From a virus (lineage: Duplodnaviria > Caudoviricetes): 64,000 nt of DNA. How positions within the stretch are numbered: position 1 is the first letter of the stretch; each line of letters starts with the position of its first letter. The notes beneath the pieces were generated by a model that saw only the letters and a list, made by a program, of their open reading frames with translations, was not told the origin of the DNA and searched no databases. Shown piece by piece: positions 735-61,500 of this stretch. The translations under genes were made by a program, and so were the position numbers. The DNA lies in IMG/VR virus record IMGVR_UViG_3300021399_000126, positions 1-64,000 of that record. The stretch is one strand, 5' to 3'.

Positions 735-3608
735 CTATTCATTCTCACCATGAACCATCTTATTAACAAGTGATGTAGAACAGCCTAATCTATCGGCTAC
801 TTCTGCTTGTGTATAACCAGATGATAGCATAGCTTTAGCAAGCGCTATATTATTCTTATTAGTACTAATGTATTTAGTTGTGGTATTCTCTTTAGGTGTA
901 GCCATTTGCTTAAGTTCTGTTGAATCCATGTTAGAAATGATCTTCTGCATCATGGTTGAACCAATTGCTCCAGCTTGTATAGCTTCCCATTCTCTATCTG
1001 TTAAATGAACAAGTCTAGCTTTCTTAGAAGCACCAGTTAAAGCTCTTCCTTCTGCTAAAGCAGCATTCTCTATCTTTTTACGCCAATCTCTATCTTCTTT
1101 CTTAGCAGGGTTGTCTTTAAACTGAGCTTTAGTAATACTATTAGCAATTGCCTGAGCTCTTCTCTCTAAAGGTGCATTTAACATTGCTAATTTAACTTTG
1201 TCATTAAGAGAAGCTACTTCTTTAGCATATGTTTGAGCTGCAGAAGGTGATCTTTTTAAAGAAGGAATTTTAACAGACTCAAGTCTAGCTTGATTGGCCA
1301 TCTTCTTTAGCGTATTTGCATATTCGGCATATAGATTTTCTACTCTAGACCCAGTAGATAACTCATATGCATCTTTGGTCTCTGCCATCTGACTAGATTT
1401 GGTACGGTTGTATACTACTTTACCATTCTTATCTGTATAGTGTCTGCCTGTATACTGCCATTCTTTTTCACCTGTCTCTTTGTTTATTTTATACCAGGAT
1501 CTTTCAGGTACATCATACTCATTCTTAGCTCTAGATATCAGAGTAGATGCTCCATGTTTAGATGGATCATTAGGATTAACTTGATATGTTCTTTTTAATT
1601 CTGCAATATTATTATCCTTATAGCATTGTTTCCAGTCAAGTCCATGTTTCTCAGCATCAATAATCATCTGAGCACATTTAACAGCTCTAACAATATCTTC
1701 TGGAGGAGCACCTTTAATTCCCATATCTGTAAGAAGATTTGTACAAATACCCATTTGTCTCTGTTTCATAGTTGACGAAATTACTTTATCTGGATGTAAA
1801 GCTTTTTCTTCATCAGTCATTTTATAAAGCTCTTTTGGTTCGTAATTTCTTAATTCTGCAAATACACCTTCTTGTTTTGTTGTCTTAAAGTTTATTCCTT
1901 TTGTTGGTATAACTAAAACATTATCGCCATCAAAATCAGCTCCTGATAACTGGTGAGCAACATTAGCATTAATTCCAACAGCATCTATGGGTGATGTACC
2001 AAGCATCTTCTTTCCTTCTGCATTAGAGTTGTTTACTCTAAGAACTGGAATCTCAAATGTACCTTGGTGAGGATAACGTATACAAATTACTTCTTCTCCG
2101 TCTTTAAAATTAGTTGCATAGATCTCATTATCCTTTAAAGAAGTAACAGGAAGTATAGCACACGTTTTTTGCCTCGGTAATCCTGCTGCTTTAAGATCTA
2201 CTGCTGATGCATCACATTCTTCTGCAAAATCTATTAAAGCTTTCTTTCTAATTTCAGGATTTGTATACTGAGAAACTTCATCTAATTCTCTTTGTTTTTG
2301 AGCAATGCTTAATCTTAACTGATTTTCAACCAACTTAGTAGGTTGTTTAGCTAAGAACTGTGATGCTAGGTTAGTATTATTAGCCCAACCAGACCAAGTT
2401 CCTTCATCATTTACTTTATTTATAGCTGAAAGATGTTCATTACCATTTTTATCAGCGTACATTGATTGTCCACCAGCCATTATCGATGCACCAAAAGGAC
2501 GCTCCTTATCTACGCCGCCATCTTTAAAATAGTGTTTATTTTTATCTACTTTAGTATCAGCAGTTGATATGAACTTCTTATTTTCAAATTCATACCATCC
2601 TAAATCATTTGGATTCTCGTCACCTTTAGGATCCGCATCAACTTTAACACGTTCCATTTTCTTAAATGCTTTATTAGGACCATCAGCTCTACTTTTATTA
2701 GAGTTTAATATAATGTCATAGCCCTTAGGAACATTGTCAGAATATACAGCCATTCCTTTCAGGTATCTATCACCATCTACTGCTATTCTTACCTGTGAAT
2801 AGTTCGATTTTCCAAGATCAAGATCAGGAACACCTCTTCTTAATTCAATAACACCATCCTTATCAGCTCCACCATCTTCTGCATATTTAATAAATATTCT
2901 TGAAGAATCTATGGACTGAGGAAATTGTGTCTTTCTAAGTATTGGACCATCAGCACTATCATCAAAAGTAATATCTTTTAACGGTTTAACTTGTCCAACG
3001 TCTTTCATTAATTCTGGATATGTTGTATCTTTATCACCAAGTACCATAAAAGTAGTATTCTTTCCAGTACCAAGCTGCTTAACTTTAGGAGTAAATGTTT
3101 GATATCCTTCATCTTTAAGCATTTCCACAGCTGCATCCATTTTAGATCTTGCAACATTTAATCCTATTTCAGTCGATTCGCCAATATCAACAAATCTTTT
3201 CTTCTTTACTTCATCTTCAATTGCATCTTTAACAGCAAATATTACTTTATTTCGCTCTTCTGTCATAGGATCGAGCAAAGTTCTGACATAAGATTCACCC
3301 TTACCACCAAGCATCTTACCTATTGCTTCATTTGTATATCCGGCTTCTCTTTGTCTTTGAGCAAAAGAAATTTCGTCTCTTTTTCTTTGTGATCTTTCGA
3401 TCATGTTCCTTTTATTGAACATATCCATGGAAATACCCATGTCTTCGGCGATCTCTTTATTAGAAAATCCTTTCTTTCTCAACTCGTCTGCTCTGTCTAA
3501 GAACCAACTTTCATGTTGAAAAGGCTCATCTCCTGAACCCCAAGGATATCTACCAGATCTTCTAGGCATTCCATAATGTTGTAATTCGTCCATTCGAAAC
3601 TCGTCCAC
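735..3608 (-). CDS. Single-chain double-psi beta-barrel RNA polymerase (YonO / cellular RdRP-like) with N- and C-terminal HTH motifs
   Basis: RYPH...AVGIN...LSGADFDGDNVLV catalytic-loop signature; Q.IIDAEKHG segment; HTH-like segments GFSNKEIAEDMGIS, GYTNEAIGKMLG and GYTQAEVADRLGCSTSLV. Confidence 0.8.
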   Translation of the reverse strand: MDEFRMDELQHYGMPRRSGRYPWGSGDEPFQHESWFLDRADELRKKGFSNKEIAEDMGISMDMFNKRNMIERSQRKRDEISFAQRQREAGYTNEAIGKMLGGKGESYVRTLLDPMTEERNKVIFAVKDAIEDEVKKKRFVDIGESTEIGLNVARSKMDAAVEMLKDEGYQTFTPKVKQLGTGKNTTFMVLGDKDTTYPELMKDVGQVKPLKDITFDDSADGPILRKTQFPQSIDSSRIFIKYAEDGGADKDGVIELRRGVPDLDLGKSNYSQVRIAVDGDRYLKGMAVYSDNVPKGYDIILNSNKSRADGPNKAFKKMERVKVDADPKGDENPNDLGWYEFENKKFISTADTKVDKNKHYFKDGGVDKERPFGASIMAGGQSMYADKNGNEHLSAINKVNDEGTWSGWANNTNLASQFLAKQPTKLVENQLRLSIAQKQRELDEVSQYTNPEIRKKALIDFAEECDASAVDLKAAGLPRQKTCAILPVTSLKDNEIYATNFKDGEEVICIRYPHQGTFEIPVLRVNNSNAEGKKMLGTSPIDAVGINANVAHQLSGADFDGDNVLVIPTKGINFKTTKQEGVFAELRNYEPKELYKMTDEEKALHPDKVISSTMKQRQMGICTNLLTDMGIKGAPPEDIVRAVKCAQMIIDAEKHGLDWKQCYKDNNIAELKRTYQVNPNDPSKHGASTLISRAKNEYDVPERSWYKINKETGEKEWQYTGRHYTDKNGKVVYNRTKSSQMAETKDAYELSTGSRVENLYAEYANTLKKMANQARLESVKIPSLKRSPSAAQTYAKEVASLNDKVKLAMLNAPLERRAQAIANSITKAQFKDNPAKKEDRDWRKKIENAALAEGRALTGASKKARLVHLTDREWEAIQAGAIGSTMMQKIISNMDSTELKQMATPKENTTTKYISTNKNNIALAKAMLSSGYTQAEVADRLGCSTSLVNKMVHGENE

Positions 3609-3639: not shown

Positions 3640-4191
3640 TTAGTCATTCTGTAAATCTTTTAAAATTTTTGAATACTTTCTAATTTTATCCATAATAGGC
3701 AGTATGATCTCTGCTGTAGGATTATCAATAAGTACTTCATTATTTTGATAAATCCTAGTTTCGATCTTTATATCACCTGGCTTTACAGAATATTCTAAAC
3801 AGAATAAAGCTGCATAAATATAGAGCTGTTCCATATGAGCTTTAATTTTGCCAGTTTTTAAATCGTGGATTCGTAATATATCATTCTTAAATCCTATAGC
3901 ATCTGTTGTACCATAACAAACATCAGAATAATATAATACAACTTCTGGATCTAGTCCAAATCCTATAGCATCGTTAATATGCATTTCAAGAGTATGACCA
4001 TTTGGTTTTTGCTTAATTCTATGTCTTATCGCCATAGCTGCATATTCATGAAGTTCTGTTCCTTCTTGAATAGCTTGAGCAGATTTCCATCTCTCAATTA
4101 CTTTCTTTTCATCATAATTTAACCAATGCCATTGACTAGCTCCTAGGAACGCATGTGATCCCTCAAGATTTGAGTGATTGTTCCATTTCAT
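3640..4191 (-). CDS. PD-(D/E)XK exonuclease (DUF2800 / Cas4-like)
   Basis: HAFLGAS, GTELHEYA, GTTDAI, IHDLKTG and QLYIYA motifs. Confidence 0.7.
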   Translation of the reverse strand: MKWNNHSNLEGSHAFLGASQWHWLNYDEKKVIERWKSAQAIQEGTELHEYAAMAIRHRIKQKPNGHTLEMHINDAIGFGLDPEVVLYYSDVCYGTTDAIGFKNDILRIHDLKTGKIKAHMEQLYIYAALFCLEYSVKPGDIKIETRIYQNNEVLIDNPTAEIILPIMDKIRKYSKILKDLQND

Positions 4192-4568: not shown

Positions 4569-5789
4569 TTAGTTTGAAAATGATGAATCCCTAAAAATTG
4601 TGGCTGCAAAATTCTTTTCATTAAAATCTTCTTTTAAATCAATACATCTTTTAATAGATTTGTCGATTGAACTATCACTTATTAATGAATAATAATATAA
4701 ATCAACATATAATGTGTTTAATCTATCAATTCGGCCACTTGCTTGTTCCATCATTCTATAGCTATAGTTCAAAGAATAGAATATCATACAATTTGTATCT
4801 ATACAATTCCAGCCTTCAGCACCTGATGCATATTGAACAAGATAAATCCATCTACCGGCTTTTGGTATTGATTGATGTTTGTGACCATTCCATTCAGCAT
4901 ATAAGTATTGTTTGTCTTCACAATATTTTCTTAATGCTTCCAACTCATAGTCAAAATTGTAAAATATAATTATTCTTGAACTATTTTCTAAAATTTTATC
5001 TATTGCTTCAAATCTACTAGGATCATTATTTACAACTTTTCTTATAGCTGACATTAATTGTGCAATATTTTCAAATGGCTCTTGAGTTTCATAATCTTTT
5101 CTCTCATCCATTATGTAGTCATATGAAACTTTATTATACTCAACGGGCACTGTAATATAATGTCTAACTGTATCTCTTTTAAATGGCATTTGAACAAGTA
5201 CCATGCTAAGAAAAGCTTTTAATCTACTAGTCTCGATATATCTATCAACTTTTGGAAACTTAGCAAATCTATTCCAAACTACATGTCTTCTCTCAAACTC
5301 TGTTTTATTCTTGTAAAATCCATTTGCTACAAATACCGGAATATAATCATGCCATTTATCCCCAGGAGTAGCACTTAGCAATATCCATAAGTTTTTCTTT
5401 GTAATTTTATAAAATGATTGTACCCATGCTCCATTGCCAACTACTCTTTGTTCATCGAATATAAAGAAAGCATTTTCAACATCTACATATTTTCCAATAT
5501 TGTTCCAAGAATCTATAGCTTTAGGTTTTATTAATAATGGAGCACACTCCTGTTCCCAATCGCAAGTGTCTCTTTTTCTAGCTGTTGTTATAATATATAA
5601 ATCAACAATATTAGTTGGTTTTTTATAACAAGGTTCATCATTACTATCATAAAGAGAGCCATTACAAATTTTACAAAAATAATATGCTAGAGCTGTAAGC
5701 GACTTCCCAGAACCGACTCCACCACATAAGATGGAGCCAGATCTGAGTTTTCTTATCGCTTCACGTTGATGAGAATATAATTTTATCAA
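4569..5789 (-). CDS. SF2 (SNF2-like) helicase
   Basis: Walker A GVGSGKS, Walker B FIFDEQ, SATPG, GAEGWN and QASGRIDR motifs. Confidence 0.85.
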   Translation of the reverse strand: MIKLYSHQREAIRKLRSGSILCGGVGSGKSLTALAYYFCKICNGSLYDSNDEPCYKKPTNIVDLYIITTARKRDTCDWEQECAPLLIKPKAIDSWNNIGKYVDVENAFFIFDEQRVVGNGAWVQSFYKITKKNLWILLSATPGDKWHDYIPVFVANGFYKNKTEFERRHVVWNRFAKFPKVDRYIETSRLKAFLSMVLVQMPFKRDTVRHYITVPVEYNKVSYDYIMDERKDYETQEPFENIAQLMSAIRKVVNNDPSRFEAIDKILENSSRIIIFYNFDYELEALRKYCEDKQYLYAEWNGHKHQSIPKAGRWIYLVQYASGAEGWNCIDTNCMIFYSLNYSYRMMEQASGRIDRLNTLYVDLYYYSLISDSSIDKSIKRCIDLKEDFNEKNFAATIFRDSSFSN

Positions 5790-6301
5790 TCAATATCTCC
5801 AGTTGCAATACCAATTGCAGAATCGGGAACATCTAAATATTTGCTAGCAAACCTATCTTCTGCTATTGTTACATACATTGATTTGAGATATCCTTTAATA
5901 CCTTTCTTTCCATTAACATCATAATGATAAGGTCTAATAACTAAATCAACTTTCTTAATTTCAGCCCAATCAAGAATATCGATTTCTTCCTCACCAAGTT
6001 TATTCTTTTTAACAGGTTTTCCATCAATTTCTGTAACAAGCCATACAATGGGTTTACTAAATCCATCATAATTAACTTTAACCTGCATATAAGGAACTTC
6101 CTCATCTTCAGGATCACGAGGTTTAAGTGTTCTTACATTCCAACCATCTTTAAGTAATCCATCAGCATCTTCAGGATTTAAAAGAACACAAAAGTTCCTA
6201 TTTCCCTTAGTATTAAATTTTCCTTCTTTTCCAGAAAAGTTCTTAAATCTAAGTTCTGCATTCTCAATTGCTATATCTTCATTCTGTATTTCACGTGCCA
6301 T
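5786..6301 (-). CDS. Putative single-stranded DNA-binding protein (phage OB-fold)
   Basis: Beta-rich sequence, G.KGYLKSMYV segment, acidic C-terminus; lies between replicase and helicase. Confidence 0.6.
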   Translation of the reverse strand: MAREIQNEDIAIENAELRFKNFSGKEGKFNTKGNRNFCVLLNPEDADGLLKDGWNVRTLKPRDPEDEEVPYMQVKVNYDGFSKPIVWLVTEIDGKPVKKNKLGEEEIDILDWAEIKKVDLVIRPYHYDVNGKKGIKGYLKSMYVTIAEDRFASKYLDVPDSAIGIATGDID

Positions 6302-12830: not shown

Positions 12831-12992
12831 TTAATTATTTAAACTATACTTCTTATCAATTTTCGTTGTAAGTCTAAGCATCTTTGTATATAAATATTTA
12901 GTTCTCAAAGATTCCACCCAGCATAATACATATATTATACCAGTACCAATCTTAGAAACCAGCCATATCATACCTAATTTAATTACTTTCAT
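12831..12992 (-). CDS. 53-aa cassette membrane peptide (not in ORF track)
   Basis: MKVIKLGMIWLVSKIGTGIIYVLCWVESLRTKYLY...; GGAGG RBS; between promoter 13036 and hairpin 12791-12830. Confidence 0.65.
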   Translation of the reverse strand: MKVIKLGMIWLVSKIGTGIIYVLCWVESLRTKYLYTKMLRLTTKIDKKYSLNN

Positions 12993-13035
12993 ACCATTTT
13001 CCTCCTTGTTATAGTTTAAACAGACACTATTGTCT

Positions 13036-13060
13036 ATTATAGAAGGGATAAAATGTGCGA
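13036..13060 (-). promoter_or_regulatory. Phage promoter motif
   Basis: TCGCA-N14-TATAAT followed by the hairpin AGAC-AATAGT-GTCT. Confidence 0.75.
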
Positions 13061-13100
13061 AAAGATTAGAGAGACCTTATTAAGATCTCCCAAAATCTTT
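13061..13100 (-). terminator. Cassette-end hairpin abutting the next promoter
   Basis: GGGAGAUC-UUAAUAA-GGUCUCUC then UAAUCUUUU running into CGCA. Confidence 0.65.
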
Positions 13101-13105
13101 TATCT

Positions 13106-13327
13106 TTATTTTTTACAATATTTATCTAAAAAATTTATTAAATTGTCTTCAACTTTAATGCAAAATTGTATGTCTCCATCTTTTGTTAAATCATCATAAT
13201 TCCGAATAAATACTTTATAAATAACAAATATAATTGTACCTATAAAGAATGCCGGAAATGTAACCATTTCAAACAAAAGCCACAGGACAAAACCATACCA
13301 TTTCCATTTTTTAAAAGCTGTTACCAT
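13106..13327 (-). CDS. Small cassette membrane protein
   Basis: 73 aa with a hydrophobic N-terminal half. Confidence 0.7.
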   Translation of the reverse strand: MVTAFKKWKWYGFVLWLLFEMVTFPAFFIGTIIFVIYKVFIRNYDDLTKDGDIQFCIKVEDNLINFLDKYCKK

Positions 13328-13363
13328 ATTTTATCCTCCATTTTTAAACAGACACTATTGTCT

Positions 13364-13388
13364 ATTATAGAAGGAATATAACTTGCGA
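13364..13388 (-). promoter_or_regulatory. Phage promoter motif
   Basis: TCGCA-N14-TATAAT plus the AGACAATAGTGTCT hairpin; 32 bp (13343-13374) identical to 13015-13046. Confidence 0.75.
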
Positions 13389-13714
13389 TCTATTTAATTT
13401 CACTTTCTTTATCATCAGAATTTATTGTAAGGATTGTTACTTCTTTAATTTTGTCTAATATTTCCTCAATAGAATCATATACTAAAAATGGAACACCTGA
13501 ACCCGAGGTGTATATCTTTGTTACATAAGTATCATTTACCTCAGATCTATAGAATCCATCTATGTTTTTTACATTAATATATAAGTCACCACTATATAGA
13601 CTTCGTAATTTAATCATATCCATTATTTTTATAACCTTTCTTTAAATATAATATGTGATCCATTGGGCCATCTCACTTTGTTCAATGACAAAAAAGAAAG
13701 AGGCCTTTTAAGCC

Positions 13715-13978
13715 TCAATCTCTTCTTTCGAGCGATACTTCATATACAGTATACTCTGGATCATATGTCAGTAGTGCATTATTTCTTATGTCGGCACGAA
13801 AATACATCCAACATTGGGACTTTTTCTCTTTTGACATGAATCCATTAACATACTGATTAAGTATATTAACTAATTCATTTAGGTCATCAGAATGAAAATC
13901 CTTTGCTTTAGTTTTTTCGTACACTATATTAAATGCTGTGTACTGATACGTCATAATCAATGTATATTGTTTATTCAT
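13715..13978 (-). CDS. Small cassette gene, hypothetical
   Basis: 87-aa ORF; SD directly follows the promoter TATAAT. Confidence 0.7.
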   Translation of the reverse strand: MNKQYTLIMTYQYTAFNIVYEKTKAKDFHSDDLNELVNILNQYVNGFMSKEKKSQCWMYFRADIRNNALLTYDPEYTVYEVSLERRD

Positions 13979-13994
13979 ATCTATTACCTCCTTT

Positions 13995-14019
13995 ATTATA
14001 GAAGGTATAATACATGCGA
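13995..14019 (-). promoter_or_regulatory. Phage promoter motif
   Basis: TCGCA-N14-TATAAT immediately followed by AAAGGAGG. Confidence 0.75.
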
Positions 14020-18181: not shown

Positions 18182-18451
18182 TTACATGTCTAACATTTCT
18201 TCTAATACTTTCACAGATTCCTCATACTCTTTTGAAGGTCCAAAATGATTTGGATCGACTTTTCTGGCTACCAAATCTGCTACTTGTAGCGGCCAAGTAA
18301 ATAAATTACTTGCTGCTGCACCAGCAAATATGACACCAGATCCAACTTTAGTCTTTCCGAATTTTGTATTTGAAACCCTTCTATGTAATTTTTCTACGGG
18401 TTCTGTAAATCCAATTTTATTATTACTGTTTACAAAAATATTATTTCCCAT
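18182..18451 (-). CDS. Small cassette gene
   Basis: 89-aa ORF after promoter 18476. Confidence 0.7.
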   Translation of the reverse strand: MGNNIFVNSNNKIGFTEPVEKLHRRVSNTKFGKTKVGSGVIFAGAAASNLFTWPLQVADLVARKVDPNHFGPSKEYEESVKVLEEMLDM

Positions 18452-18475
18452 TTTTATCCTCCTTCTGCTTCTATC

Positions 18476-18500
18476 ATTATAGGAGGAATATAATATGCGA
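18476..18500 (-). promoter_or_regulatory. Phage promoter motif
   Basis: TCGCA-N14-TATAAT. Confidence 0.75.
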
Positions 18501-18516
18501 AAAGAAGAAAGAGACC

Positions 18517-18705
18517 TTAAATAGTCTCTTTTATTATTTCTGAAGGATTATGACGACGATTACGTGCAATATATTCAATTTCTTTTGATGATGCTTTTTC
18601 TCTTTTATACATCATCGCATAATTAATATATTGCTCTAACACTGCTTCTTCATATTCATTCGTTACCTTACTAAGATCTCTTTCCTCTTTTTTAGTTAAA
18701 TTCAT
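18517..18705 (-). CDS. Small cassette gene
   Basis: 62-aa ORF between promoter 18721 and hairpin 18501-18532. Confidence 0.7.
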   Translation of the reverse strand: MNLTKKEERDLSKVTNEYEEAVLEQYINYAMMYKREKASSKEIEYIARNRRHNPSEIIKETI

Positions 18706-18720
18706 ATTATCACCTCCTTT

Positions 18721-18745
18721 ATTATAGAAGGAATATAATATGCGA
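18721..18745 (-). promoter_or_regulatory. Phage promoter motif (consensus copy)
   Basis: TCGCATATTATATTCCTTCTATAAT followed by AAAGGAGGTG. Confidence 0.8.
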
Positions 18746-18760
18746 AAAAAGAAAGGAGCA

Positions 18761-18997
18761 TTATGCTCCCTTCAAAAACTCTTTTGCCAATTCTTGAAGT
18801 TCAAGCTTCCCGTTTTCTGCAAAAGCATGAATATACTGGATCTCATCCTCAGTAAGGTTTTCTCCATTAATTGTTAATGTTCTTAACCATTCTTTAAAGA
18901 GAAAACCCTTCTTTAATGATCCACCAGCAATACTCCAACTTGCTACATAACGGGATACATAAATCCCATGAATCAACTTGTTTTCAAATTCGTTCAT
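18761..18997 (-). CDS. Small cassette gene
   Basis: 78-aa ORF between promoter 19038 and hairpin 18746-18772. Confidence 0.7.
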   Translation of the reverse strand: MNEFENKLIHGIYVSRYVASWSIAGGSLKKGFLFKEWLRTLTINGENLTEDEIQYIHAFAENGKLELQELAKEFLKGA

Positions 18998-19037
18998 ATT
19001 ATTATCCTCTCTTTCTAGATATACACCGCGTATATCT

Positions 19038-19062
19038 ATTATAGAAGGATTAAAATATGCGA
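19038..19062 (-). promoter_or_regulatory. Phage promoter motif
   Basis: TCGCA-N14-TATAAT followed by the hairpin AGATATAC-GCGGT-GTATATCT. Confidence 0.75.
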
Positions 19063-19111
19063 AAACTTAGAGCAACCATAAAATATAATTTATAGTTACT
19101 CTTTTGTTTTT

Positions 19112-19387
19112 TTACTTCCAATGAGAACTCCAAATAGAGCGATCAACTCCACTAATAGTTCCTAAATAATAAGTATCTTTGACACCATTAATCCGGAAGC
19201 AATTTATAACACCTATAGATCTGCTTTGACAAACAGATATTTTAGCACATTTAGAAAAATCAAATTCATCTAAATGAGACCAAAATGCCTCTTCCAAATC
19301 AGAAGTAAGGTTTCGATATACTTCCCTTTTAAGTATGATACTGTTTTTAATACTTATTTTCTTCTTTATAAGTTTCGCTATCTTCAT
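19112..19387 (-). CDS. Small cassette gene
   Basis: 91-aa ORF between promoter 19417 and hairpin 19062-19110. Confidence 0.65.
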   Translation of the reverse strand: MKIAKLIKKKISIKNSIILKREVYRNLTSDLEEAFWSHLDEFDFSKCAKISVCQSRSIGVINCFRINGVKDTYYLGTISGVDRSIWSSHWK

Positions 19388-19416
19388 ATGTAATTCTCCT
19401 TTCTGCCTTTCTGGCT

Positions 19417-19441
19417 ATTAAAGGAGCCTTATTTTTTGCGT
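19417..19441 (-). promoter_or_regulatory. Phage promoter motif with an abutting TTGTACGG box
   Basis: ACGCA-N14-TTTAAT. Confidence 0.65.
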
Positions 19442-19546
19442 CCGTACAAGTTCATACAATCTCTTTAAAATTTTATAAACTCCTTAATTAATATATGCGA
19501 AAAGAAGAAAGGAGCCATATTTCAGACTCCCTTCACATTCATAATC

Positions 19547-19630
19547 TCATTTCCATAGCTTCTTAAATATAAACTTAATTAAGCAAGCTAATAAAGCTAA
19601 CGAGATCAATACAAATGCAACGGTTAACAT
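19547..19630 (-). CDS. 27-aa hydrophobic cassette peptide (not in ORF track)
   Basis: MLTVAFVLISLALLACLIKFIFKKLWK; GAGGT RBS; between promoter 19672 and hairpin 19501-19533. Confidence 0.6.
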   Translation of the reverse strand: MLTVAFVLISLALLACLIKFIFKKLWK

Positions 19631-19671
19631 AAAATATACCTACCTCTCTTTCTTTAATCGACATTATTGTC

Positions 19672-19696
19672 ATTATAGGAGGCATATTTCTTGCGT
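19672..19696 (-). promoter_or_regulatory. Phage promoter motif with an abutting TTGTACGG box
   Basis: ACGCA-N14-TATAAT plus the GACAATAATGTC hairpin. Confidence 0.7.
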
Positions 19697-24555: not shown

Positions 24556-25598
24556 TTAATATACTCCATTCTTTTATATCTATAATACTTGTCCCATCAT
24601 ATACTTCCATTGGATAATAACAGCCAATCCAAGTGTTTTTACTGGAAAACTCATATTGCTGATAACAGGTATTCCATACATTTACCTCGTCTAGAATATC
24701 TTTTGTTCGAATATTAAAATCATCTCTCAAGTTGTCGTTTTCAAGTTCAGATATAATTTTATTATACTTATTTCGCATTTCTATATTTGTATGATTAACA
24801 CCATATTTACTATGACATAGTATTAATAATATAAGCATGATTGCGAATGCAAAACCAAATATAACTATACCGATACCTGCATAAATTGTTTTATCAAAAA
24901 TATTATCAAGAGTGTCTAATAGTTTGTCTTTTTTCGTTAATTTTATTAATTCAGTTTTCTCTTCATCTGTCATTTCTTCAAAATTTTTCCAAACCCGAGA
25001 ACTAAAACCTGTTCCTGATTTATTTATAACATTAATTTTATGCCTTATGCTATCTTGTACATTATAAATAACTTTATTAGTCATAATATAACTTACAATT
25101 GTAATAATTATACATAAAATAAGTAATATTCCTGTTAATAATATAAGTAACATTTTTCAACCTCCGTAAACTTTTAATTCCTTTTCTATTTGTTCATACA
25201 TTTCTTGATTAAGAATTATTTTAACTGGTTCTTCAGCATACTCTCTATTCCAAGTTGCAAAACAAGGTCCACCATTTTTATAGCAATCAGTCTTCTCACA
25301 ATCTTTATTTTTTTCTGGATCACACATATAAAGATTTAAATATAATTCCTTATCACAATATGGACACCAGACCATTTTTCTAACAAGATCTGTCTTAACC
25401 ATATCTTGATACACTTCAAACTCTTTACCACAATAATCACATTTTATAATTTGTTTCATATTATATACTCCAAATTATCCATAATAGTAATGCAACCAAC
25501 GATCCAATTATTGGAACAATACATATTGGAATAGTTGTCTCAAGTACTTCTCTTAATTTTTTTCTCATCTTTACCTCCGGGAAAAACTTAAAGGGATA

Positions 25599-25730: not shown

Positions 25731-25755
25731 ATTAAAGAAGGATTAAATTATGCGA
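25731..25755 (-). promoter_or_regulatory. Phage promoter motif overlapping the 3' end of the PurA-like gene
   Basis: TCGCA-N14-TTTAAT. Confidence 0.7.
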
Positions 25756-26847
25756 ATTAACACAATCCCTTGTTGGACCATTACTAATGTAATTATAAGA
25801 AAAATTTTCATCTGGTTTAATTTCGTCAGCATGTGTTAAAGCTATAGTTGTTTTAACTTTATAAGGTGATGAATCAATTTTTATTCGTTCGTACAACGCT
25901 TCATAGTTTATATTAGCATACCGAAGATTTCCTTGAAATGGATTATAAACATTTGTTTTATCAACAAATCCAAAATCTATTTCATCATCAAGTTTACCAT
26001 CACCATGTCTAGTGAGATAGGTTCTAGAAACATAGCAAGCTTCTATATCCAAATCTTTTCTATCACCAATAATATCAAAAACAGCTTTCAATCCAGTATT
26101 ACTAGATGTTCCATATTCAGGATCATAATCTTTATCTAATAATAAACCTTGAGCGTTTTCAAATATAATGGTATCATAGTGATCAAACAAATAATCTTGG
26201 TCACAAACCGGAGTACAAATATGTTGCATAGACCTAAAATCTTGTATAAAATTATTTATAAGATTATCAGAATAATAAGCGTTTTTCCAATTTCCAGATA
26301 AATGTATATTATTTTCTTCCATCTTCTGTTTATAATATACATCTCTAATATCCAATAAATCTTTTTCTATTTCATTATCTGTCATGCATGCATATCTTAT
26401 AAAGTTTGCACCATTTCGTCTTTTTGTTTCATAAACACCATATCCACAACTATTATTAAGGCCTTGCTCAGTCATGAAAAGTATGTTATAAATCATATCA
26501 AATGGTGTACTAACCAAACAATTATTATTTATCCGTGGTCTTGGAGTAAATCTAGTATCCTTGTTTAATAGTTTATACTCCTCTACAAATATAAGAGGAT
26601 TGGAAACAAATTGAGCTGGAATATAAGTATCCGCACCAGCAAATGTTCCACTTCCAAAATGATGAAAAATATGTCTTAAATTATTAACCTGTACAGTATG
26701 ACCTCTTTGTGATCCACCATTCGTTAAAACATTTAGGCACTTGGCATTTTTATCAGCTTCAAGAGCCTGATGACAAAAATAATCTGTCATCAAGCCCTTT
26801 CCCTCGTCTCCGTAGTTTGCTCCTATAACAGCTTTGACTACTACCAT
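25732..26847 (-). CDS. Adenylosuccinate synthetase-like protein (divergent PurA family)
   Basis: GANYGDEGKG, NGGSQRGHTV, FENAQGLLLD, RTYLTRHGDG, DKTN and GNLRY motifs. Confidence 0.85.
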   Translation of the reverse strand: MVVVKAVIGANYGDEGKGLMTDYFCHQALEADKNAKCLNVLTNGGSQRGHTVQVNNLRHIFHHFGSGTFAGADTYIPAQFVSNPLIFVEEYKLLNKDTRFTPRPRINNNCLVSTPFDMIYNILFMTEQGLNNSCGYGVYETKRRNGANFIRYACMTDNEIEKDLLDIRDVYYKQKMEENNIHLSGNWKNAYYSDNLINNFIQDFRSMQHICTPVCDQDYLFDHYDTIIFENAQGLLLDKDYDPEYGTSSNTGLKAVFDIIGDRKDLDIEACYVSRTYLTRHGDGKLDDEIDFGFVDKTNVYNPFQGNLRYANINYEALYERIKIDSSPYKVKTTIALTHADEIKPDENFSYNYISNGPTRDCVNSHNLILL

Positions 26848-45872: not shown

Positions 45873-46358
45873 TCAATAGCCAGTTCTTTTATTTTTCCCA
45901 TTTTTACACCTTTCTTCATGATTATTTTCCCATCCGACGATATCTGTTTCATCAGTTTCCATAAGTAAATTATACTTTTTCCATATATCATATAATTTTG
46001 GCATCTGAATAGCTATCCAATCTACTAGTGGCTCATTTGAAGACCATGATGTTGGATCTAGATGAGATTGATTGCCTAATCCACATTCATATATAAAAGC
46101 ATGTGTTACCTCATGTCTCAAAGTATGTTTATAACGTTCATACCTTGTGTCAGGATATCTAGAGGCATATTTAAATTCATTTTGATCAGTAAGATCAGCT
46201 ATAATAATATTTTTAATATAAAAATCAGTATAACCGTTGCATGGGTGATCTGATAAAATGAAATCATCGGAAACCTTTTTTATTTTTACAGTATAATCAA
46301 TTCCTAAAATGTTTATTTTTTTAGGAACTTCGAATTCTTTTTCTTTAATTTTTCCCAT
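45873..46358 (-). CDS. HExxH metallopeptidase-like protein
   Basis: TLRHEVTHAFIYECGL...NE..VDWIAIQ.PK. Confidence 0.65.
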   Translation of the reverse strand: MGKIKEKEFEVPKKINILGIDYTVKIKKVSDDFILSDHPCNGYTDFYIKNIIIADLTDQNEFKYASRYPDTRYERYKHTLRHEVTHAFIYECGLGNQSHLDPTSWSSNEPLVDWIAIQMPKLYDIWKKYNLLMETDETDIVGWENNHEERCKNGKNKRTGY

Positions 46359-46517
46359 ATTTTCTCACCATTTTGACCTTTCATTTTTAAATTTAAAAGA
46401 CTTAGAGGAACCATATTCGATTCCTCTACGCCTAACAACTACAAGAAAGGAGGATGCGGAATGATAAAATATACCATTTTTGATATACTTTACCACTCTC
46501 ATCCATCTTTCCACATC

Positions 46518-46542
46518 ATAATAGGAGGAATATTTTTTGCGA
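46518..46542 (-). promoter_or_regulatory. Phage promoter motif
   Basis: TCGCA-N14-TATTAT. Confidence 0.65.
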
Positions 46543-46600
46543 AAGATAAAGAAAAATATGAAGGAAGCCATAAGACTTCCTTGTTTTTAATGAAAGTTAT

Positions 46601-46699
46601 TTAACTCTCACGTTTTGACTCGATATACTCGAGTGCCTTTTCACGGCTCTCGAATATAATACCATCAACAACGTATACTTCTCTCTCATTATTTTCCAT
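46601..46699 (-). CDS. 32-aa cassette peptide (not in ORF track)
   Basis: MENNEREVYVVDGIIFESREKALEYIESKRES; GGAGG RBS. Confidence 0.65.
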   Translation of the reverse strand: MENNEREVYVVDGIIFESREKALEYIESKRES

Positions 46700-46752
46700 T
46701 TTTTTATCCTCCATTTTCCTTCATATTACTGATAAGACACTATTATCTTATC

Positions 46753-46777
46753 ATTATAGGGGTAATAAATTTTGCGA
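46753..46777 (-). promoter_or_regulatory. Phage promoter motif
   Basis: TCGCA-N14-TATAAT plus the GATAAGAT-AATAGT-GTCTTATC hairpin. Confidence 0.75.
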
Positions 46778-46852
46778 AAGATAAAAGACTTAGAGAGACC
46801 ATAATTGATCTCTCTATTGTCTGTTACCCATAACCAATTCCTAACAAAGGAA

Positions 46853-47212
46853 TTAAGGCTTTCTGCACTGATTTGAAGGCGAGAACTTTGATCGTCCCAT
46901 TTCGATCTGAATCTCGTCGTCAGGATTCTGAGATCTGCGATATTGCACATTGTAATTTATCACTGGAACTATAACACCCCCGACAGCTGCCAATCCAGCT
47001 AAAACTGCTGCCCAGATCTTAGCTCTACTTTCAACTTTCGAGCTTTCAATCTTAGCAATAGCTTCATACTTTTGTGCCATCTGGATGCGAAGTTCCTTCT
47101 TTCGTTCTGGTGTGCAGTTTTCGCGCCACATTTCCTCTTCGTCCATTGCGACAAGATCCAATAAATCATCGGACATTGTTTTCTTCTTCTTAAACCAATC
47201 TTTTATTGCCAT
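46853..47212 (-). CDS. Cassette single-TM protein
   Basis: 119 aa; IWAAVLAGLAAVGGVIVPVI segment. Confidence 0.7.
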   Translation of the reverse strand: MAIKDWFKKKKTMSDDLLDLVAMDEEEMWRENCTPERKKELRIQMAQKYEAIAKIESSKVESRAKIWAAVLAGLAAVGGVIVPVINYNVQYRRSQNPDDEIQIEMGRSKFSPSNQCRKP

Positions 47213-47248
47213 TTTATTCTCCTTTCTAAAACGGTTAATAAGTTACCT

Positions 47249-47273
47249 ATTATATAAGCCATAATTTTAGCGA
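47249..47273 (-). promoter_or_regulatory. Phage promoter motif (variant)
   Basis: TCGCT-N14-TATAAT. Confidence 0.65.
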
Positions 47274-47326
47274 AAAGCCTAAAGAGGCCATAATGACCCC
47301 TTTTAGGTTTTATTGGGTTTCTTTTA

Positions 47327-47704
47327 TCACCACTCCCAAATTAAGGTGAACAGATCACAATATTTAACTACCAAATTTTGTAACGCACAATATATAACTG
47401 ATGGTTCACAATCTTCATTAGTATTTTCTGCTATATCGGCTGCTAAATCCTCCATAAAAGCTACTAAAGTATCGTCAGTTTCATTTGCAACTCTTTTTGC
47501 TAAATCATAGCATGTATCTCCATCCCTATAAAAACGATTCAATTCTTTCTCTCTACGTTTTTTAGTAATGCAGAGTAATACTATTTGTGCAGGAAGAGTT
47601 ATAAGATTCACTGCAATAACTAGTGGCCAGTACAAAATACCTGCCAATATAGTTAATACTACATTTCTAAGAATCATTCCAACATTGTACATAAAGTTTT
47701 TCAT
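47327..47704 (-). CDS. Cassette membrane protein
   Basis: Start MKNFMY after AAGGAGG. Confidence 0.7.
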   Translation of the reverse strand: MKNFMYNVGMILRNVVLTILAGILYWPLVIAVNLITLPAQIVLLCITKKRREKELNRFYRDGDTCYDLAKRVANETDDTLVAFMEDLAADIAENTNEDCEPSVIYCALQNLVVKYCDLFTLIWEW

Positions 47705-47746
47705 GTTACATTTCCTCCTTAATGTTAAACACAGCACTATTACTGT

Positions 47747-47771
47747 ATTATAGAAGGAATAAATTGTGCGA
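47747..47771 (-). promoter_or_regulatory. Phage promoter motif
   Basis: TCGCA-N14-TATAAT plus the ACAGT-AATAGT-GCTGT hairpin. Confidence 0.75.
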
Positions 47772-47816
47772 AAAGATTAGAGAGACCATAATTGATCTCT
47801 CTACATTCTAAATTTT

Positions 47817-47918
47817 TTAAATCGAAGATAATAGCCACATGCCTACTATAAATGCGACTATCGTTAGTAATCCTACTATATCTCGGATCACCTTCAATAT
47901 TTGTCTAATTGTAAACAT
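47817..47918 (-). CDS. 33-aa hydrophobic cassette peptide (not in ORF track)
   Basis: MFTIRQILKVIRDIVGLLTIVAFIVGMWLLSSI; AAGGAGG RBS. Confidence 0.65.
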   Translation of the reverse strand: MFTIRQILKVIRDIVGLLTIVAFIVGMWLLSSI

Positions 47919-47946
47919 ATTCTTTTTACCTCCTTATAATTAATCT

Positions 47947-47971
47947 ATTATAGAAGGAATATAATATGCGA
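47947..47971 (-). promoter_or_regulatory. Phage promoter motif (consensus copy)
   Basis: TCGCATATTATATTCCTTCTATAAT. Confidence 0.8.
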
Positions 47972-48015
47972 AAAACTCAAAGAGGCCATAATGACCTCTT
48001 CAAGTCTCTCCATAT

Positions 48016-48228
48016 TTAATTGTTCTTATTATTATAATGTAAAGTCATGCATCGAACATTATTCATATTATAAGCCACCCTCTGATGATCTAAATCATTC
48101 ACAAAAATGAAGCCATTATTAATTTCAATTACCCCTTTACCTTCAAGATATTTGAAACTTACATTTCCTTCACCTACGATGTGAATTTCACCTTCTCCAT
48201 CAAAGAAACTAATAAATAATTCTGTCAT
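48016..48228 (-). CDS. Small cassette gene
   Basis: 70-aa ORF. Confidence 0.7.
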   Translation of the reverse strand: MTELFISFFDGEGEIHIVGEGNVSFKYLEGKGVIEINNGFIFVNDLDHQRVAYNMNNVRCMTLHYNNKNN

Positions 48229-48268
48229 AGTACAGTCCTCCTTTATAATATAAGCGACACTATTGTCT

Positions 48269-48293
48269 ATTATAGAAGGAATAATTTTTGCGT
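48269..48293 (-). promoter_or_regulatory. Phage promoter motif
   Basis: ACGCA-N14-TATAAT plus the AGACAATAGTGTC hairpin. Confidence 0.75.
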
Positions 48294-48331
48294 GAAAAAA
48301 TTATAGAAGGGATGAAAACATTAGTTAATAG

Positions 48332-48481
48332 TTACTTTTGTAAACTAACTTGTTTTCTTGCTACATCAAGAGCTACTCGTTCAGCTCTCTTATTACCTTT
48401 AGTTCCTCGTCTAACGAGAATCTGCTGTGCTAAGATTTGAGCCTGACGCTCAAGATTTTCATCTTCAAGTCTTTTACTCAT
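48332..48481 (-). CDS. 49-aa basic cassette peptide
   Basis: Start reassigned to MSKRLEDE after GAGGT. Confidence 0.6.
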   Translation of the reverse strand: MSKRLEDENLERQAQILAQQILVRRGTKGNKRAERVALDVARKQVSLQK

Positions 48482-48509
48482 AATTACCTCACTTTCTATC
48501 CCTTCTATC

Positions 48510-48534
48510 ATTATACAAACAATAAATCTTGCGT
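48510..48534 (-). promoter_or_regulatory. Phage promoter motif with an abutting TTGTACGG box
   Basis: ACGCA-N14-TATAAT. Confidence 0.65.
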
Positions 48535-48611
48535 CCGTACAAGTTTTTATCCATTTTGAAAAAATTAAAGAAACCATAAAAAGAAGAGGAGCAATATGCT
48601 CCCCGACTTTA

Positions 48612-48932
48612 TTAGTCCTTGTAGTATAATATGTTATACGCTAATATATCGCCTGTATTGTTTGTAACTATTTGAAATTCAAATTCATTACAATCATATA
48701 CAAGACCATACATTTCTGTACCATCCTCATACTCAACTCCTATAAAGTCGATATTCTGCTCTTCTTCTTTATCGAGATACATTTCATAATTGAGTATCTC
48801 GGTATAATCCATTTCTTCATATTTAGTAACATATGCATCATCAACATTGTATACTTCAGTATCTTCTACCAAAGTCATCCCAACGAATGACATAAACATC
48901 TTTATTACCATTGTTAAAATAAATTTTACCAT
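48612..48932 (-). CDS. Acidic cassette protein
   Basis: 106 aa, very Glu/Asp/Tyr-rich. Confidence 0.65.
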   Translation of the reverse strand: MVKFILTMVIKMFMSFVGMTLVEDTEVYNVDDAYVTKYEEMDYTEILNYEMYLDKEEEQNIDFIGVEYEDGTEMYGLVYDCNEFEFQIVTNNTGDILAYNILYYKD

Positions 48933-48977
48933 AATTTTATCCTCTTTTCTATAAAATGTCGACAGCCAATTCTGTCT

Positions 48978-49002
48978 ATTAAAGAGGTAATAAATTTTGC
49001 GT
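48978..49002 (-). promoter_or_regulatory. Phage promoter motif
   Basis: ACGCA-N14-TTTAAT plus the GACAG-AATTGG-CTGTC hairpin. Confidence 0.7.
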
Positions 49003-49053
49003 ATTTTGAAAAAATTAAAGAAGCCTTATTTTCTAAAGCTTCTTAATTTTTTA

Positions 49054-49176
49054 TTATACAATACCGAAATTAAGAACTCGGTATCCTTTTGCTTTACACC
49101 AATCAAGACCTTCCTGAACAGTTTCGAATACTGCCCAACGGATCTCGTTGTCTACTAAAAAGAATACTCTTCTCAT
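49054..49176 (-). CDS. 40-aa cassette peptide (not in ORF track)
   Basis: MRRVFFLVDNEIRWAVFETVQEGLDWCKAKGYRVLNFGIV. Confidence 0.65.
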   Translation of the reverse strand: MRRVFFLVDNEIRWAVFETVQEGLDWCKAKGYRVLNFGIV

Positions 49177-49195
49177 AACTTCGTACCTCCTTTCT

Positions 49196-49220
49196 ATAAA
49201 AGAGGTATTAAATTTTGCGA
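49196..49220 (-). promoter_or_regulatory. Phage promoter motif (variant)
   Basis: TCGCA-N14-TTTTAT followed by AGAAAGGAGG. Confidence 0.6.
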
Positions 49221-49263
49221 AAAATTAAAGAGGCCATATTTTTAAAAAAGAGAAAGAGGCCTT

Positions 49264-49386
49264 TTAAGCCTCGTCCTCTAATTCTTCAATTAAAAAGCAT
49301 TCAATTCTAAATGCACAAGAGTCACAATCATCACATGGGTGACCTTCTGCTTCACATATCTTGTACATTTCTATTAATTCATCCAT
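49264..49386 (-). CDS. 40-aa Cys-rich acidic cassette peptide (not in ORF track)
   Basis: MDELIEMYKICEAEGHPCDDCDSCAFRIECFLIEELEDEA. Confidence 0.65.
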   Translation of the reverse strand: MDELIEMYKICEAEGHPCDDCDSCAFRIECFLIEELEDEA

Positions 49387-49402
49387 TTTTTATCACCTCC
49401 TT

Positions 49403-49427
49403 ATTACAGAAGGAATATAATCTGCGA
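49403..49427 (-). promoter_or_regulatory. First phage promoter motif of the early region
   Basis: TCGCA-N14-TGTAAT immediately followed by AAGGAGGTG. Confidence 0.7.
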
Positions 49428-49604
49428 CTAAGGATTCGGACCCTAGTTCTTCATACCAAGCAGAAAGGTAGACCTTGGTAGACGTTTTATACCGGATATA
49501 AACTATCGCAAACCTTATAAGTCACCCCTCACACGGAGGTTTTATTTTATCAGGAGAACTCGGCAAGGTTTTAGAGGTATCTTATAAGGGGTTGTGTGAG
49601 GGGT
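49427..49604 (-). ncRNA. Putative structured RNA (pseudoknot, hairpins and T-loop hairpin)
   Basis: Interleaved 11-bp and 9-bp complementary blocks; TACCAAG/CTTGGTA stem; ACTAGGG-TCCGAAT-CCTTAGT. Confidence 0.5.
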
Positions 49605-58562: not shown

Positions 58563-61500
58563 TTAATATTGTATTATACCAAATTTACTACTAATTTGAG
58601 ATAGCCAAGTAGCATATGGTTCTGCTGATAAATATCTAGAATAATAAGCTGTTGGAACTTGTATCAAAAATGCACTTTTTATAGTTATTCCAGAATGCAT
58701 AGAAACAACTCGATTTCCAAATTTTACAAGATTTATACAACTTGGTAACCCATAATCTCCAATTTCTTCAACATTTAATAACTCTAATAAAGTTAGTGAT
58801 GTACCATATAAAGCACGTGAACCTATATATTTCAGTTTTGGAGCTGAAAAATATTTTAATTTACTACAACTATAAAAAGCATAATCATAAATACTTAAAC
58901 ATTCTGGTAAAGAAATAGTTGATATACTTTCATGTTGACTAAATACACTAGATCCTATATACGTACATTTAGGTAAATAGATTGAACTCGTGGTCCACGA
59001 TACAGTTATAGAATAGTCTAATCCAGATTGTAAATTTGATAATGATAAGTATCTATTAGCATATATTTTAAAATTAGTACTTGCTGGTAATCTTGAAAAA
59101 CCTAATGTAATATTTGATCCAGAAATAATCATACTAGTAGAAGGATCAATTGATATATTTGATAATTTTGGCATATACACATTATTAGCACTTATATAAC
59201 AATATGAAAAATTCCCACGAGATACATATAACACATTCAATGTTTCCAACATTGGACAATTAATATTTGATCTTGCTGATATTCTATTATTAAAAGTGTT
59301 TGTATTAATAATCGAACAATTTGGTAAATTTAAAACTGAAAATATTGTATTTCTATCAATGTTATAGCCACTACTATTAAAATCCGGGAGTGATCCGCGT
59401 GGGTTATAATCACCAGTAATTCTTAAATCACAATATTCCGTTATAGCACTAGCTCCAAAAGTCATATCATAAATAGCTACAAAATATCTACTATTATATG
59501 TATGTGTAATAAAAGTTGATACACTTATTAAATTCAATGACGATAACTGAACATCCTGTAAATATAATGTACTCATATAAGATGGTAAAACTGTCTGATA
59601 ATTACTGTAATTATAAAATGGATAATAATTACCAATCAATAATGTACCTTTTGAAAACTTTGGTAATGAAATATTAAAATTAGCTGGAAATGTTTCGCTA
59701 GTAGACCATTGTCCTGGACCATGTATCCAAACGTATCCTTCTTCTAATTTTGGAAACGATATATTAAAATTATATATATAAGAACTATGAAGATTTCCAC
59801 CTATATCCATAGCATTATCTATCCATCCATTAAAATATAATGCCCCATTACCTGTTATTTTCTTTAATTTTGGTATCTCTATATAACCAGTATTCCATAT
59901 CTCTAAGGTTTGTCTTTTTTCGGATTCCGTTACAGTATAATATATATTATTACCATCAGTCCAAATATCTTGACCGTAAAAATAATTAGAATTTCTAAGT
60001 CCAGACCAAATCATTTTATACCATATATGAGTTGATTTATTTAATTTATATTGTTCTTCAGTAGTACGACCACCACTATAATATATATTAGTTCCATCTG
60101 TCCAAATATTTTGACCGTAAAAATAATATGGACTATAAAAATCTATTTCCACCCAAGTATTAGTAGAAATATTTAATTTATATTGAGGGGTGTCACCGTA
60201 ATAATAGCTATAATATATATTAGAACCATCAGTCCAAACATAATTGCCATCAAAATCAGTCAACCCATGCCAAGTCATTTTAGACCAAGTATGAGTTGAT
60301 TTATTTAATTTATATTGACTACTATTAATACTATAATATATATTATTTCCTTCTTTCCAAATGTATTCTCCATTAAAATTAGTCAACCCAGACCAAGTCA
60401 TTGGTTCCCAAGTATTTATTGATTTGTTTAATACATATTGATTAGTTCCTGAACTATAATATGTATCTATTCCATCTGTCCATATATAAGAACCATAAAA
60501 ATTTGTTAATCCAGACCAATTTATTTTAGACCATTTACGATTTTCAATATTAAATTTATATTGCTTATCACCATAACTATAATATACATTTAATCCTTCA
60601 TGCCATACACCAACACCTCGCATTTGGTAAGTTGGTCCATACCAATCAAATATTGACCATGTATGTGTGCTAATATCTAATTTATATTGAAGATAATTAC
60701 TTCGTGAATCATAAGCGGAATAGTACACATTAGTTCCATCAGTCCAAACATAATTGCCGTTAAAATCTGTTAATCCAGACCAAGTCATTCGAGACCATGT
60801 ATTAGTACTAAAATCTAATTTATATTGAGTAGATGAACTGCTATAATATATATTATAACCATCAGTCCAAACATAATTACCATTAAAACTGGTTAATCCA
60901 GACCAAGTCATTTTGGACCATTTATGAGTACTAGAATCTAATTTATATTGAATAGATGAACTGCTATAATATACATCACTGCCACTCTTCCAAATATATT
61001 GACCATAAAAATCTGTTAAACCAGACCAATTCATTTTAGACCACGTATGAGTACTAATATCTAATTTATATTGAGTAGATGAATCGCTATAATATATATC
61101 TGTTCCATCAGTCCAAACATAATTACCATACAAATCTGTCAACCCAGACCAAGTCATTGGTTCCCAAGTATTTATTGATTTGTTTAATACATATTGATTA
61201 GTTCCTGAACTATAATATGTATCTATTCCATCAGACCACATACGACTACCAGATGCATTTTCTGGTAATCCAATCCAATTTATTTTAGACCATTCATTTG
61301 TGTTTCTATCCAGTATATATTGATCGTGCCTAATACTTTGATATATATCGGTTCCATCTGTCCATATGCAAGAGCCATCTAATGTGCATGCTGGGCCAAT
61401 AAATGTTGTCTCAATCCAAGTATTTGTTACTTCATCTAATATAAATTGATCATTATGATTATATTGATTACCATAATAACTATAATATATATTGACTCCA

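Follow-up and report, generated by a model that had tools for sequence, protein, structure and literature searches.

A tandem array of promoter-bearing small-gene cassettes in a phage of the Lactococcus phage 1706 lineage

The DNA analysed here, called the window, comprises positions 1 to 64,000 of the IMG/VR record IMGVR_UViG_3300021399_000126, the first 64 kb of the ~98-kb genome (97,886 bp) of a rumen/gut phage. On its minus strand, from 49427 to 46395, ten co-oriented units stand back to back, spaced 200-498 bp apart. Each of the ten units starts with a promoter of the form TCGCA-N14-TATAAT-purine, which is followed by a strong Shine-Dalgarno site. The cargo is a small open reading frame (ORF) of 32-125 amino acids (aa) in nine of the ten units and a ~90-nt hairpin RNA in unit 10. 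The cassette array is real and statistically solid. The best explanation of the whole, to which we assign a probability of about 0.68, is that the units are autonomous cassettes that would be exchanged at their junctions like the promoter-early stem-loop (PeSL) elements of T4-type phages and would be transcribed by a polymerase of the phage itself.

Anatomy of the array and its products

The array forms the head of the non-structural region and follows directly after the tail-fibre genes. The C of the CGCA box lies, on the minus strand, at 49426, 49219, 49001, 48533, 48292, 47970, 47770, 47272, 46776 and 46541, giving successive promoter spacings of 207, 218, 468, 241, 322, 200, 498, 496 and 235 bp. 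The features are as follows.

Cassette 1: 49224..49427, minus strand; promoter 49403-49427; ORF 49264-49386 (40 aa, acidic, 5 Cys); hairpin 49256-49272 with U-tract
Cassette 2: 49006..49223, minus strand; promoter 49196-49220 (second box TTTTAT); ORF 49054-49176 (40 aa); hairpin 49018-49044
Cassette 3: 48538..49005, minus strand; promoter 48978-49002; ORF 48612-48932 (106 aa, N-terminal hydrophobic helix, acidic); hairpin 48586-48604
Cassette 4: 48320..48537, minus strand; promoter 48510-48534; ORF 48332-48481 (49 aa, basic); without terminator
Half-promoter remnant: 48300..48319, minus strand; end of a spacer plus TATAAT, without TCGCA; directly upstream of the cassette 5 promoter
Cassette 5: 47975..48299, minus strand; promoter 48269-48293; leader stem-loop; ORF 48016-48228 (70 aa); hairpin ~47976-48004
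Cassette 6: 47775..47974, minus strand; promoter 47947-47971; ORF 47817-47918 (33-aa membrane peptide); hairpin 47778-47803
Cassette 7: 47277..47774, minus strand; promoter 47747-47771; ORF 47327-47704 (125 aa, membrane); hairpin ~47278-47307
Cassette 8: 46781..47276, minus strand; promoter 47249-47273; ORF 46853-47212 (119 aa, one membrane helix); hairpin 46791-46816
Cassette 9: 46546..46780, minus strand; promoter 46753-46777; ORF 46601-46699 (32 aa); hairpin 46561-46582
Cassette 10: 46395..46545, minus strand; promoter 46518-46542; no conserved ORF; ~90-nt long-hairpin RNA; terminator 46403-46428
161-aa HExxH-motif gene (phrog_1233): 45873..46358, minus strand; located after the array and lacking its own promoter

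The original prediction, made from the letters of the window, had described ten consecutive units of ~200-500 bp with a promoter and a ribosome-binding site each, and this was confirmed by the motif positions, the spacings and shuffled sequences. With at most one mismatch allowed, TCGCA-N14-TATAAT was matched 28 times in the window, 26 times on the minus (coding) strand, compared with 2.62 +/- 1.51 matches in the shuffles. When the whole 97.9-kb genome was scanned, all convincing copies (~27) fell within 4558-49426 and none in the structural half, where nothing obvious was found as a late-promoter motif either. The predicted ORF of 32-125 aa was present in units 1-9 and failed in unit 10, which has no credible ORF and carries a conserved hairpin RNA. 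The ORF sizes were corrected to 49 aa in unit 4 and, by comparison with a relative, to 32 aa in unit 9.

The unit ends were scored by direct folding. A GC hairpin followed by a U-tract was observed at nine of the ten junctions (seven with z <= -4.4 and two weaker, z ~-1.5). The expected terminator thus held at these nine and was missing after unit 4, where folding gave no hairpin and the half-promoter remnant is found. We read this remnant as the scar of an imprecise cassette loss. Terminator-like sites numbered 11 between 45 and 51 kb against 2.4 expected, and in most junctions the last Ts run into the next TCGCA, as had been predicted. The dispersed repeats of the window are chiefly these junctions, if the internal repeats of a 1705-aa protein are set aside. 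Composites of terminator and promoter form repeat families of 65-70 nt, and the terminators of cassette 6 (47778-47803) and cassette 8 (46791-46816) are identical at 26 of 26 positions. The promoter copies at operon starts lack any hairpin, which argues that the hairpin is not part of the promoter.

The smaller arrays and the single cassettes within operons that had been predicted were all located by their promoter positions.

Second array, three cassettes: 12831..14019, minus strand; promoters at 14018, 13387 and 13059
Third array, five cassettes: 18182..19696, minus strand; promoters at 19695, 19440, 19061, 18744 and 18499
Single cassettes: promoters at 11944, 15050, 25754, 37325, 41200 and 44227

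The same short leader stem-loop stands right after TATAAT at 13015-13036, 13343-13364 and 48248-48269 (minus strand) and carries the identity of these three promoters, which lie up to 35 kb apart, well past the promoter itself. A leader stem-loop is present in ~11 of 27 units; its free energy is no stronger than background, and it was dropped as a defining feature. Strings resembling a tRNA T-arm (GGTTCGAATCC-type) are found directly upstream of cassette promoters in a relative described below (G001 ~7870-7890) and in the window (49430-49465); ARAGORN detected no tRNA in the window between 45000 and 50500.

Counterparts of eight cassette genes were found in G001, at 37-79% aa identity. For the six shared pairs with unsaturated synonymous divergence (dS), which include the 33-aa and 49-aa genes, the ratio of nonsynonymous to synonymous divergence (dN/dS) against the relative was 0.14-0.37, indicating that the micro-ORFs are real genes. 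The pair of 32-aa genes is 79% identical with dS saturated. A hydrophobic or membrane helix is predicted in four of the nine products. None of the nine array proteins had a match in Pfam or PHROGs, and the ESM Atlas returned nothing usable for the 106-aa and 119-aa proteins. The 106-aa protein of cassette 3 has a homologue in G001 (54% aa identity) and only one other among 5.8 billion proteins (80% identity). That the products act on the host envelope, in host takeover or in defence is a guess only. The hairpin RNA of unit 10 is conserved in G001 as two paralogous copies with a few compensatory changes (L011 3925-4110 and 8575-8760), which are the first and the second-to-last units of the G001 array. 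Rfam gave only sub-threshold noise over the array region, including this RNA.

Cassette turnover among relatives

The region had no nucleotide-level match among GenBank phages by blastn. Searching IMG/VR with the product of a flanking 208-aa gene gave no match, and the 161-aa protein, whose gene is the conserved anchor that marks the array slot in relatives, found one contig only. A scan of one metagenome added just a 3.3-kb contig. The closest relative of the anchor gene, at 95% aa identity, lies on a contig of 3.2 kb. The sole long relative of the window genome is IMGVR_UViG_3300028591_000270 (G001), with 40-80% protein identity, and L015 is a 3.3-kb contig of 92% nucleotide identity to G001.

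Cassette content and order both vary between these relatives. The same slot in G001, bounded by the tail genes and the 161-aa HExxH gene, has 17 promoter copies in 4.8 kb. With the numbers of the window cassettes, its unit order is 5, 4, a unit of the 14018 array, new, 3, new, 6, new, new, new, 8, 9, 10 and a match to the 18499 gene. All shared units have the same orientation, so the change in order is not an inversion. Five G001 units have no homologue anywhere in the genome of the window phage, and the G001 contig in turn lacks units 1, 2 and 7 of the latter. In G001 the main array includes the 87-aa gene that in the window belongs to the first cassette of the second array (14018), and the gene of its last unit is partially matched by the 89-aa gene of the 18499 cassette (31 aa, 45% identity, tblastn E ~8e-6). 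Between the window genome and G001 the breakpoints resolve only to 'between ORFs', the relative being too distant. In the closer pair, the collinearity of L015 with G001 starts at L015:250, inside a promoter, and the gene, the terminator and the spacer of the promoter that lie upstream of this point have been exchanged for unrelated ones in L015.

Beyond these, a motif scan of IMG/VR turned up at least 22 contigs, of 34-52% GC, that carry 4-13 copies each in one orientation. Six make up a clade of phages of 58-61 kb that have the same type of promoter. Between their cassette strings, whole units are inserted, deleted or replaced, and the order is swapped once. The ends of BLAST homology blocks were pooled over the closer pairs of relatives. 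The 144 unique ends comprised 40 within -10 to +30 of a motif, where 9.6 were expected, 56 elsewhere between genes against an expectation of 26, and 48 inside genes against an expectation of 108. When only the non-genic ends are counted, 42% lay in the motif window against 27% expected, a modest excess over other intergenic DNA. The alignment of relatives proposed with the original prediction thus placed gain and loss breakpoints preferentially at the junction motifs, and one of them, in the 92%-identical pair, is resolved to inside a promoter/leader. Cassette-wise turnover is firmly supported by these sequence comparisons, and recombination through junction homology is only plausible.

A 411-bp indel with one Cys-rich 131-aa gene was also observed between G001 (2448-2859) and L015 (2611-2626). 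A 20-nt direct repeat of the ribosome-binding and start region borders it on both sides, and its setting is a promoter-less operon, so gene-sized indels appear to be marked by repeated translation signals as well as by promoters. Both this indel and the half-promoter scar fit short-homology recombination.

Transcription and exchange of the cassettes

The large genes place the phage in a supercluster of Actinobacteria and Firmicutes phages, described in a preprint (10.1101/842583) as encoding a polymerase like the RNA-dependent RNA polymerases (RdRP-like) that is flanked by helix-turn-helix (HTH) domains. The genes relevant here are the following.

735..3608, minus strand: RdRP-like (YonO-type) single-chain RNA polymerase, 957 aa, HTH domains at both ends
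3640..4191, minus strand: exonuclease (phrog_3953), likely the partner of the annealing protein
5786..6301, minus strand: single-strand annealing protein (phrog_4787)
6518-10531: primase-polymerase fusion

The distance from the first box to TATAAT is 14 bp, compared with 17 bp for sigma-A promoters, and canonical sigma-A promoters were not enriched. Across the genomes, a purine directly follows TATAAT in 220 of 225 copies. In 52 of the 225 the Shine-Dalgarno core begins 0-3 nt past TATAAT; a sigma-type start 6-8 nt downstream is disfavoured because this core would be cut off. Seven of the genomes with the motif are at least 90% complete, and each of them encodes the RdRP-like polymerase. These features argue for initiation at the purine after TATAAT by the phage RdRP-like polymerase and not by the host sigma-A holoenzyme, which we regard as probable, if by no great measure. 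The promoter of the related enzyme YonO is still undefined in PMC5467207. As a separate observation, the N-terminal ~75 residues of the polymerase (residues 3-80) match the starts of two proteins of ~190-215 aa per genome in G007-G010 (E 1e-9 to 1e-11). The polymerase N-terminus may therefore be a shared module, an HTH domain or a targeting tag.

In the proposed mechanism, the junction would give any gene that is set between two copies its own start and stop signals, and the junction repeats would supply short homology for recombination, with the annealing protein and the exonuclease as probable catalysts. Transcription of each unit would start at the purine after TATAAT by the phage polymerase. 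The arrays would behave as hyperplastic accessory-gene regions, as PeSLs do in T4-type phages. The idea of a plug-in library exchanged through repeated junctions, which the original prediction had put forward, is supported by the comparative pattern of turnover and by the breakpoint enrichment, and is not proven in its mechanism.

The same array could instead be an ordinary multi-promoter early region, in which the likeness of the junctions reflects functional constraint and the turnover comes from illegitimate or general recombination with selection for intact genes, the repeats being idle. Viable joints would then fall into the junctions simply as almost all intergenic DNA of the array is junction, and the clade-specific cargo and the 411-bp indel, flanked by a ribosome-binding/start repeat and not by a promoter, agree with this. 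Terminators need structure only, yet the hairpin sequences with their loops recur (26 of 26 positions; the 65-70-nt composites), the motif is enriched for block ends even within non-genic DNA, a half-promoter scar is present and one intact junction per gene is kept through the changes of order. We consider such a region unlikely, while giving it real weight. A comparable standing, improbable and still to be taken seriously, is given to a host RNA polymerase that is redirected by some phage activator on the TCGCA box. In T4, the MotA-box promoters have their box near -30, ~14 bp ahead of a sigma-type -10 element. The cassette promoters equal this MotA/AsiA middle-promoter geometry, with the box centred near -30 and ~14 bp before a perfect -10. 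A copy of the motif (4535-4559) also precedes the polymerase gene itself, so transcription by the phage enzyme faces a bootstrap problem unless the enzyme is injected or some host transcription occurs. On the other side, no sigma region 2 and no sigma, MotA or AsiA homologue was found in the phage, where divergent ones would escape detection. The purine follows TATAAT in 98% of the copies with the Shine-Dalgarno site often 0-3 nt beyond, and motif and polymerase occur together in the seven near-complete genomes.

If the hairpins were RNA-processing or stabilising structures, or upstream promoter elements, the array could be one long message. Intrinsic termination by a YonO-type polymerase is an assumption, and the 161-aa gene beyond the last hairpin, lacking a promoter of its own, needs some read-through. 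Each hairpin, however, is followed by a U-tract as in intrinsic terminators, the operon-start promoters have no hairpin and a promoter per gene would be redundant in one message; we regard a single message as quite improbable. Movement by a site-specific system, integron-like or homing, is hardly credible. Tandem co-oriented cassettes with hairpin junctions superficially resemble integron arrays. An integron cassette array was rejected, as a PF00589 search of the genome found no match to an IntI-type tyrosine recombinase and every cassette has its own promoter, compared with the promoter-less attC cassettes, and the hairpins are plain perfect stems with U-tracts.

Several points weigh against autonomous cassettes with exchange at the junctions and transcription by the phage polymerase. 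Faecalibacterium phage FP_oengus has the polymerase without the motif, and the array lies mid-genome and not at an end. We infer the promoters, the start site, the terminator function and the timing from sequence. The 144 pooled breakpoints do not represent independent events, and shared motifs attract the ends of BLAST blocks. Nearly every intergenic gap in the arrays is a junction element, so that selection for intact genes would place breakpoints at junctions without any role of the repeats. The only long relative of the window genome is distant and does not resolve the joints of this genome. Orthologous cassettes partly keep the similarity of their promoter spacers, from which it follows that the joint is not always inside the promoter. 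Finally, the array proteins of the window phage were not found in the examined pieces of the other clades; given this clade-specific cargo, exchange may be confined to close kin.

Known systems, phage 1706 and further features of the genome

The PeSL and PmSL elements of T4-type myoviruses were described by Arbiol et al. 2010 (PMC2839356) and Comeau et al. 2014 (PMC4122927). We used the PeSL definition of the latter, which also mentions Mot-box PmSLs and describes 'degraded 1/2 PeSLs'. PeSLs are further associated with excision, as mini-circles, of the DNA that two elements enclose. The cassettes share with PeSLs a short composite of stem-loop, promoter and Shine-Dalgarno site with start codon between small ORFan genes, present in many copies in variable non-structural regions and, in this phage, in none of the structural half. 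The elements likewise lie at indels, replacements and displacements between relatives (at cassette resolution only for the window genome), and a degraded half-element is present. They differ in the promoter, which is TCGCA-N14-TATAAT-purine and probably read by a single-chain phage polymerase, compared with the TTGACA-N17-TATAAT (sigma-70 early) or Mot-box middle type of PeSLs. The carriers also differ, PeSLs being found in T4-like myoviruses and the cassettes in an unrelated siphovirus-type supercluster of Gram-positive hosts, where the units are packed more densely (200-500 bp each) and a non-coding RNA is among them. The PeSL analogy of the original prediction therefore stands for the anatomy and the comparative pattern and does not extend to promoter class and phage lineage. 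Since both of these differ, the array system works like PeSL and is not a member of the T4 PeSL family. This suggests a convergent evolution of plug-in gene arrays and extends the idea of regulatory repeats doubling as recombination joints beyond T4-type phages, to Gram-positive phages with a non-sigma promoter class.

The host-takeover module of the Bacillus phage SPO1 was reportedly described by Stewart et al. 1998 (cited in PMC12282133). Such a module consists of many small genes in short operons with strong early promoters, strong ribosome-binding sites and terminators; the promoters are of the host sigma-A consensus, and the module sits in the terminal redundancy. The array has a similar layout, with small genes clustered in many short units of promoter and terminator. 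It differs by its non-canonical promoter and apparently by its position, which is mid-genome in a record with no terminal repeat.

One relative in culture, Lactococcus phage 1706 (NC_010576), carries a cognate motif 11 times, always in the same orientation; six copies form an array at 24.0-25.4 kb right after the tail-fibre gene, where a long T-tract precedes each. The gene order is the same, with tail fibres, a small-gene array and replication genes that include primase-polymerase, annealing protein, exonuclease and polymerase. Phage 1706 has TATAGT as its second box and often CCACA or GCACA as its first, and no array protein is common to both phages. Two unannotated ORFs for hydrophobic membrane peptides of 21 and 33 aa, at 24784-24849 and 25198-25299 of 1706 (L135), lie in GenBank 'intergenic' gaps, and each has its own copy of the promoter motif upstream. 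A literature search found no published description of these promoters or arrays. Somewhat tentatively, the junction may be a portable expression adaptor tied to a private phage polymerase, with any gene or small RNA between two copies turned into a self-contained unit expressed only in infected cells, and the arrays a fast-turnover accessory library, driven by the annealing recombinase, that is common to a large and mostly uncultured group from the dairy Lactococcus phage 1706 to rumen/gut phages; we hold this broader proposal to be less likely than not. For the RdRP-like polymerases of the supercluster, which are uncharacterised, the motif supplies a definite promoter candidate. The arrays also draw attention to a large number of very small conserved genes, most of them without annotation, among which are those for membrane peptides of 21-33 aa. 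The array model can be tested in culture with phage 1706 and its host Lactococcus lactis.

The window has a GC content of ~32%, with nearly all its genes on the minus strand. The phage belongs to the lineage of Lactococcus phage 1706 and FP_oengus, which have the RdRP-like RNA polymerase in common. The nearest named relatives are FP_oengus (DNA polymerase 52%) and the Arthrobacter cluster phages (RNA polymerase 43%), and also Lactococcus phage 1706. The record is without end repeats and has the main array mid-contig, and the 'direct terminal repeat' labels of the relatives do not fix physical genome ends. Independent 'linear' assemblies stop at the same places (window position 1, G000 97886, G001 56618 and position 1 of G007 and G009), which lie a few hundred bases beyond the polymerase gene and just ahead of the first structural-side genes. 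This coincidence hints at fixed physical genome ends and not at random contig breaks.

The 371-aa protein encoded at 25732-26847 (minus strand) matches phrog_1211, a homologue of PurZ-type adenylosuccinate synthetase (E 5e-42), and by this match the phage DNA may contain 2-aminoadenine in place of adenine. The cassette promoter 25731-25755 overlaps the 3' end of this gene. In the 1705-aa protein, encoded at 58563-63680 (minus strand), a 123-nt (41-aa) repeat stands in tandem in at least 15 copies at ~59.9-62.2 kb, and the same repeats are present in its G001 homologue, a tail-region protein.

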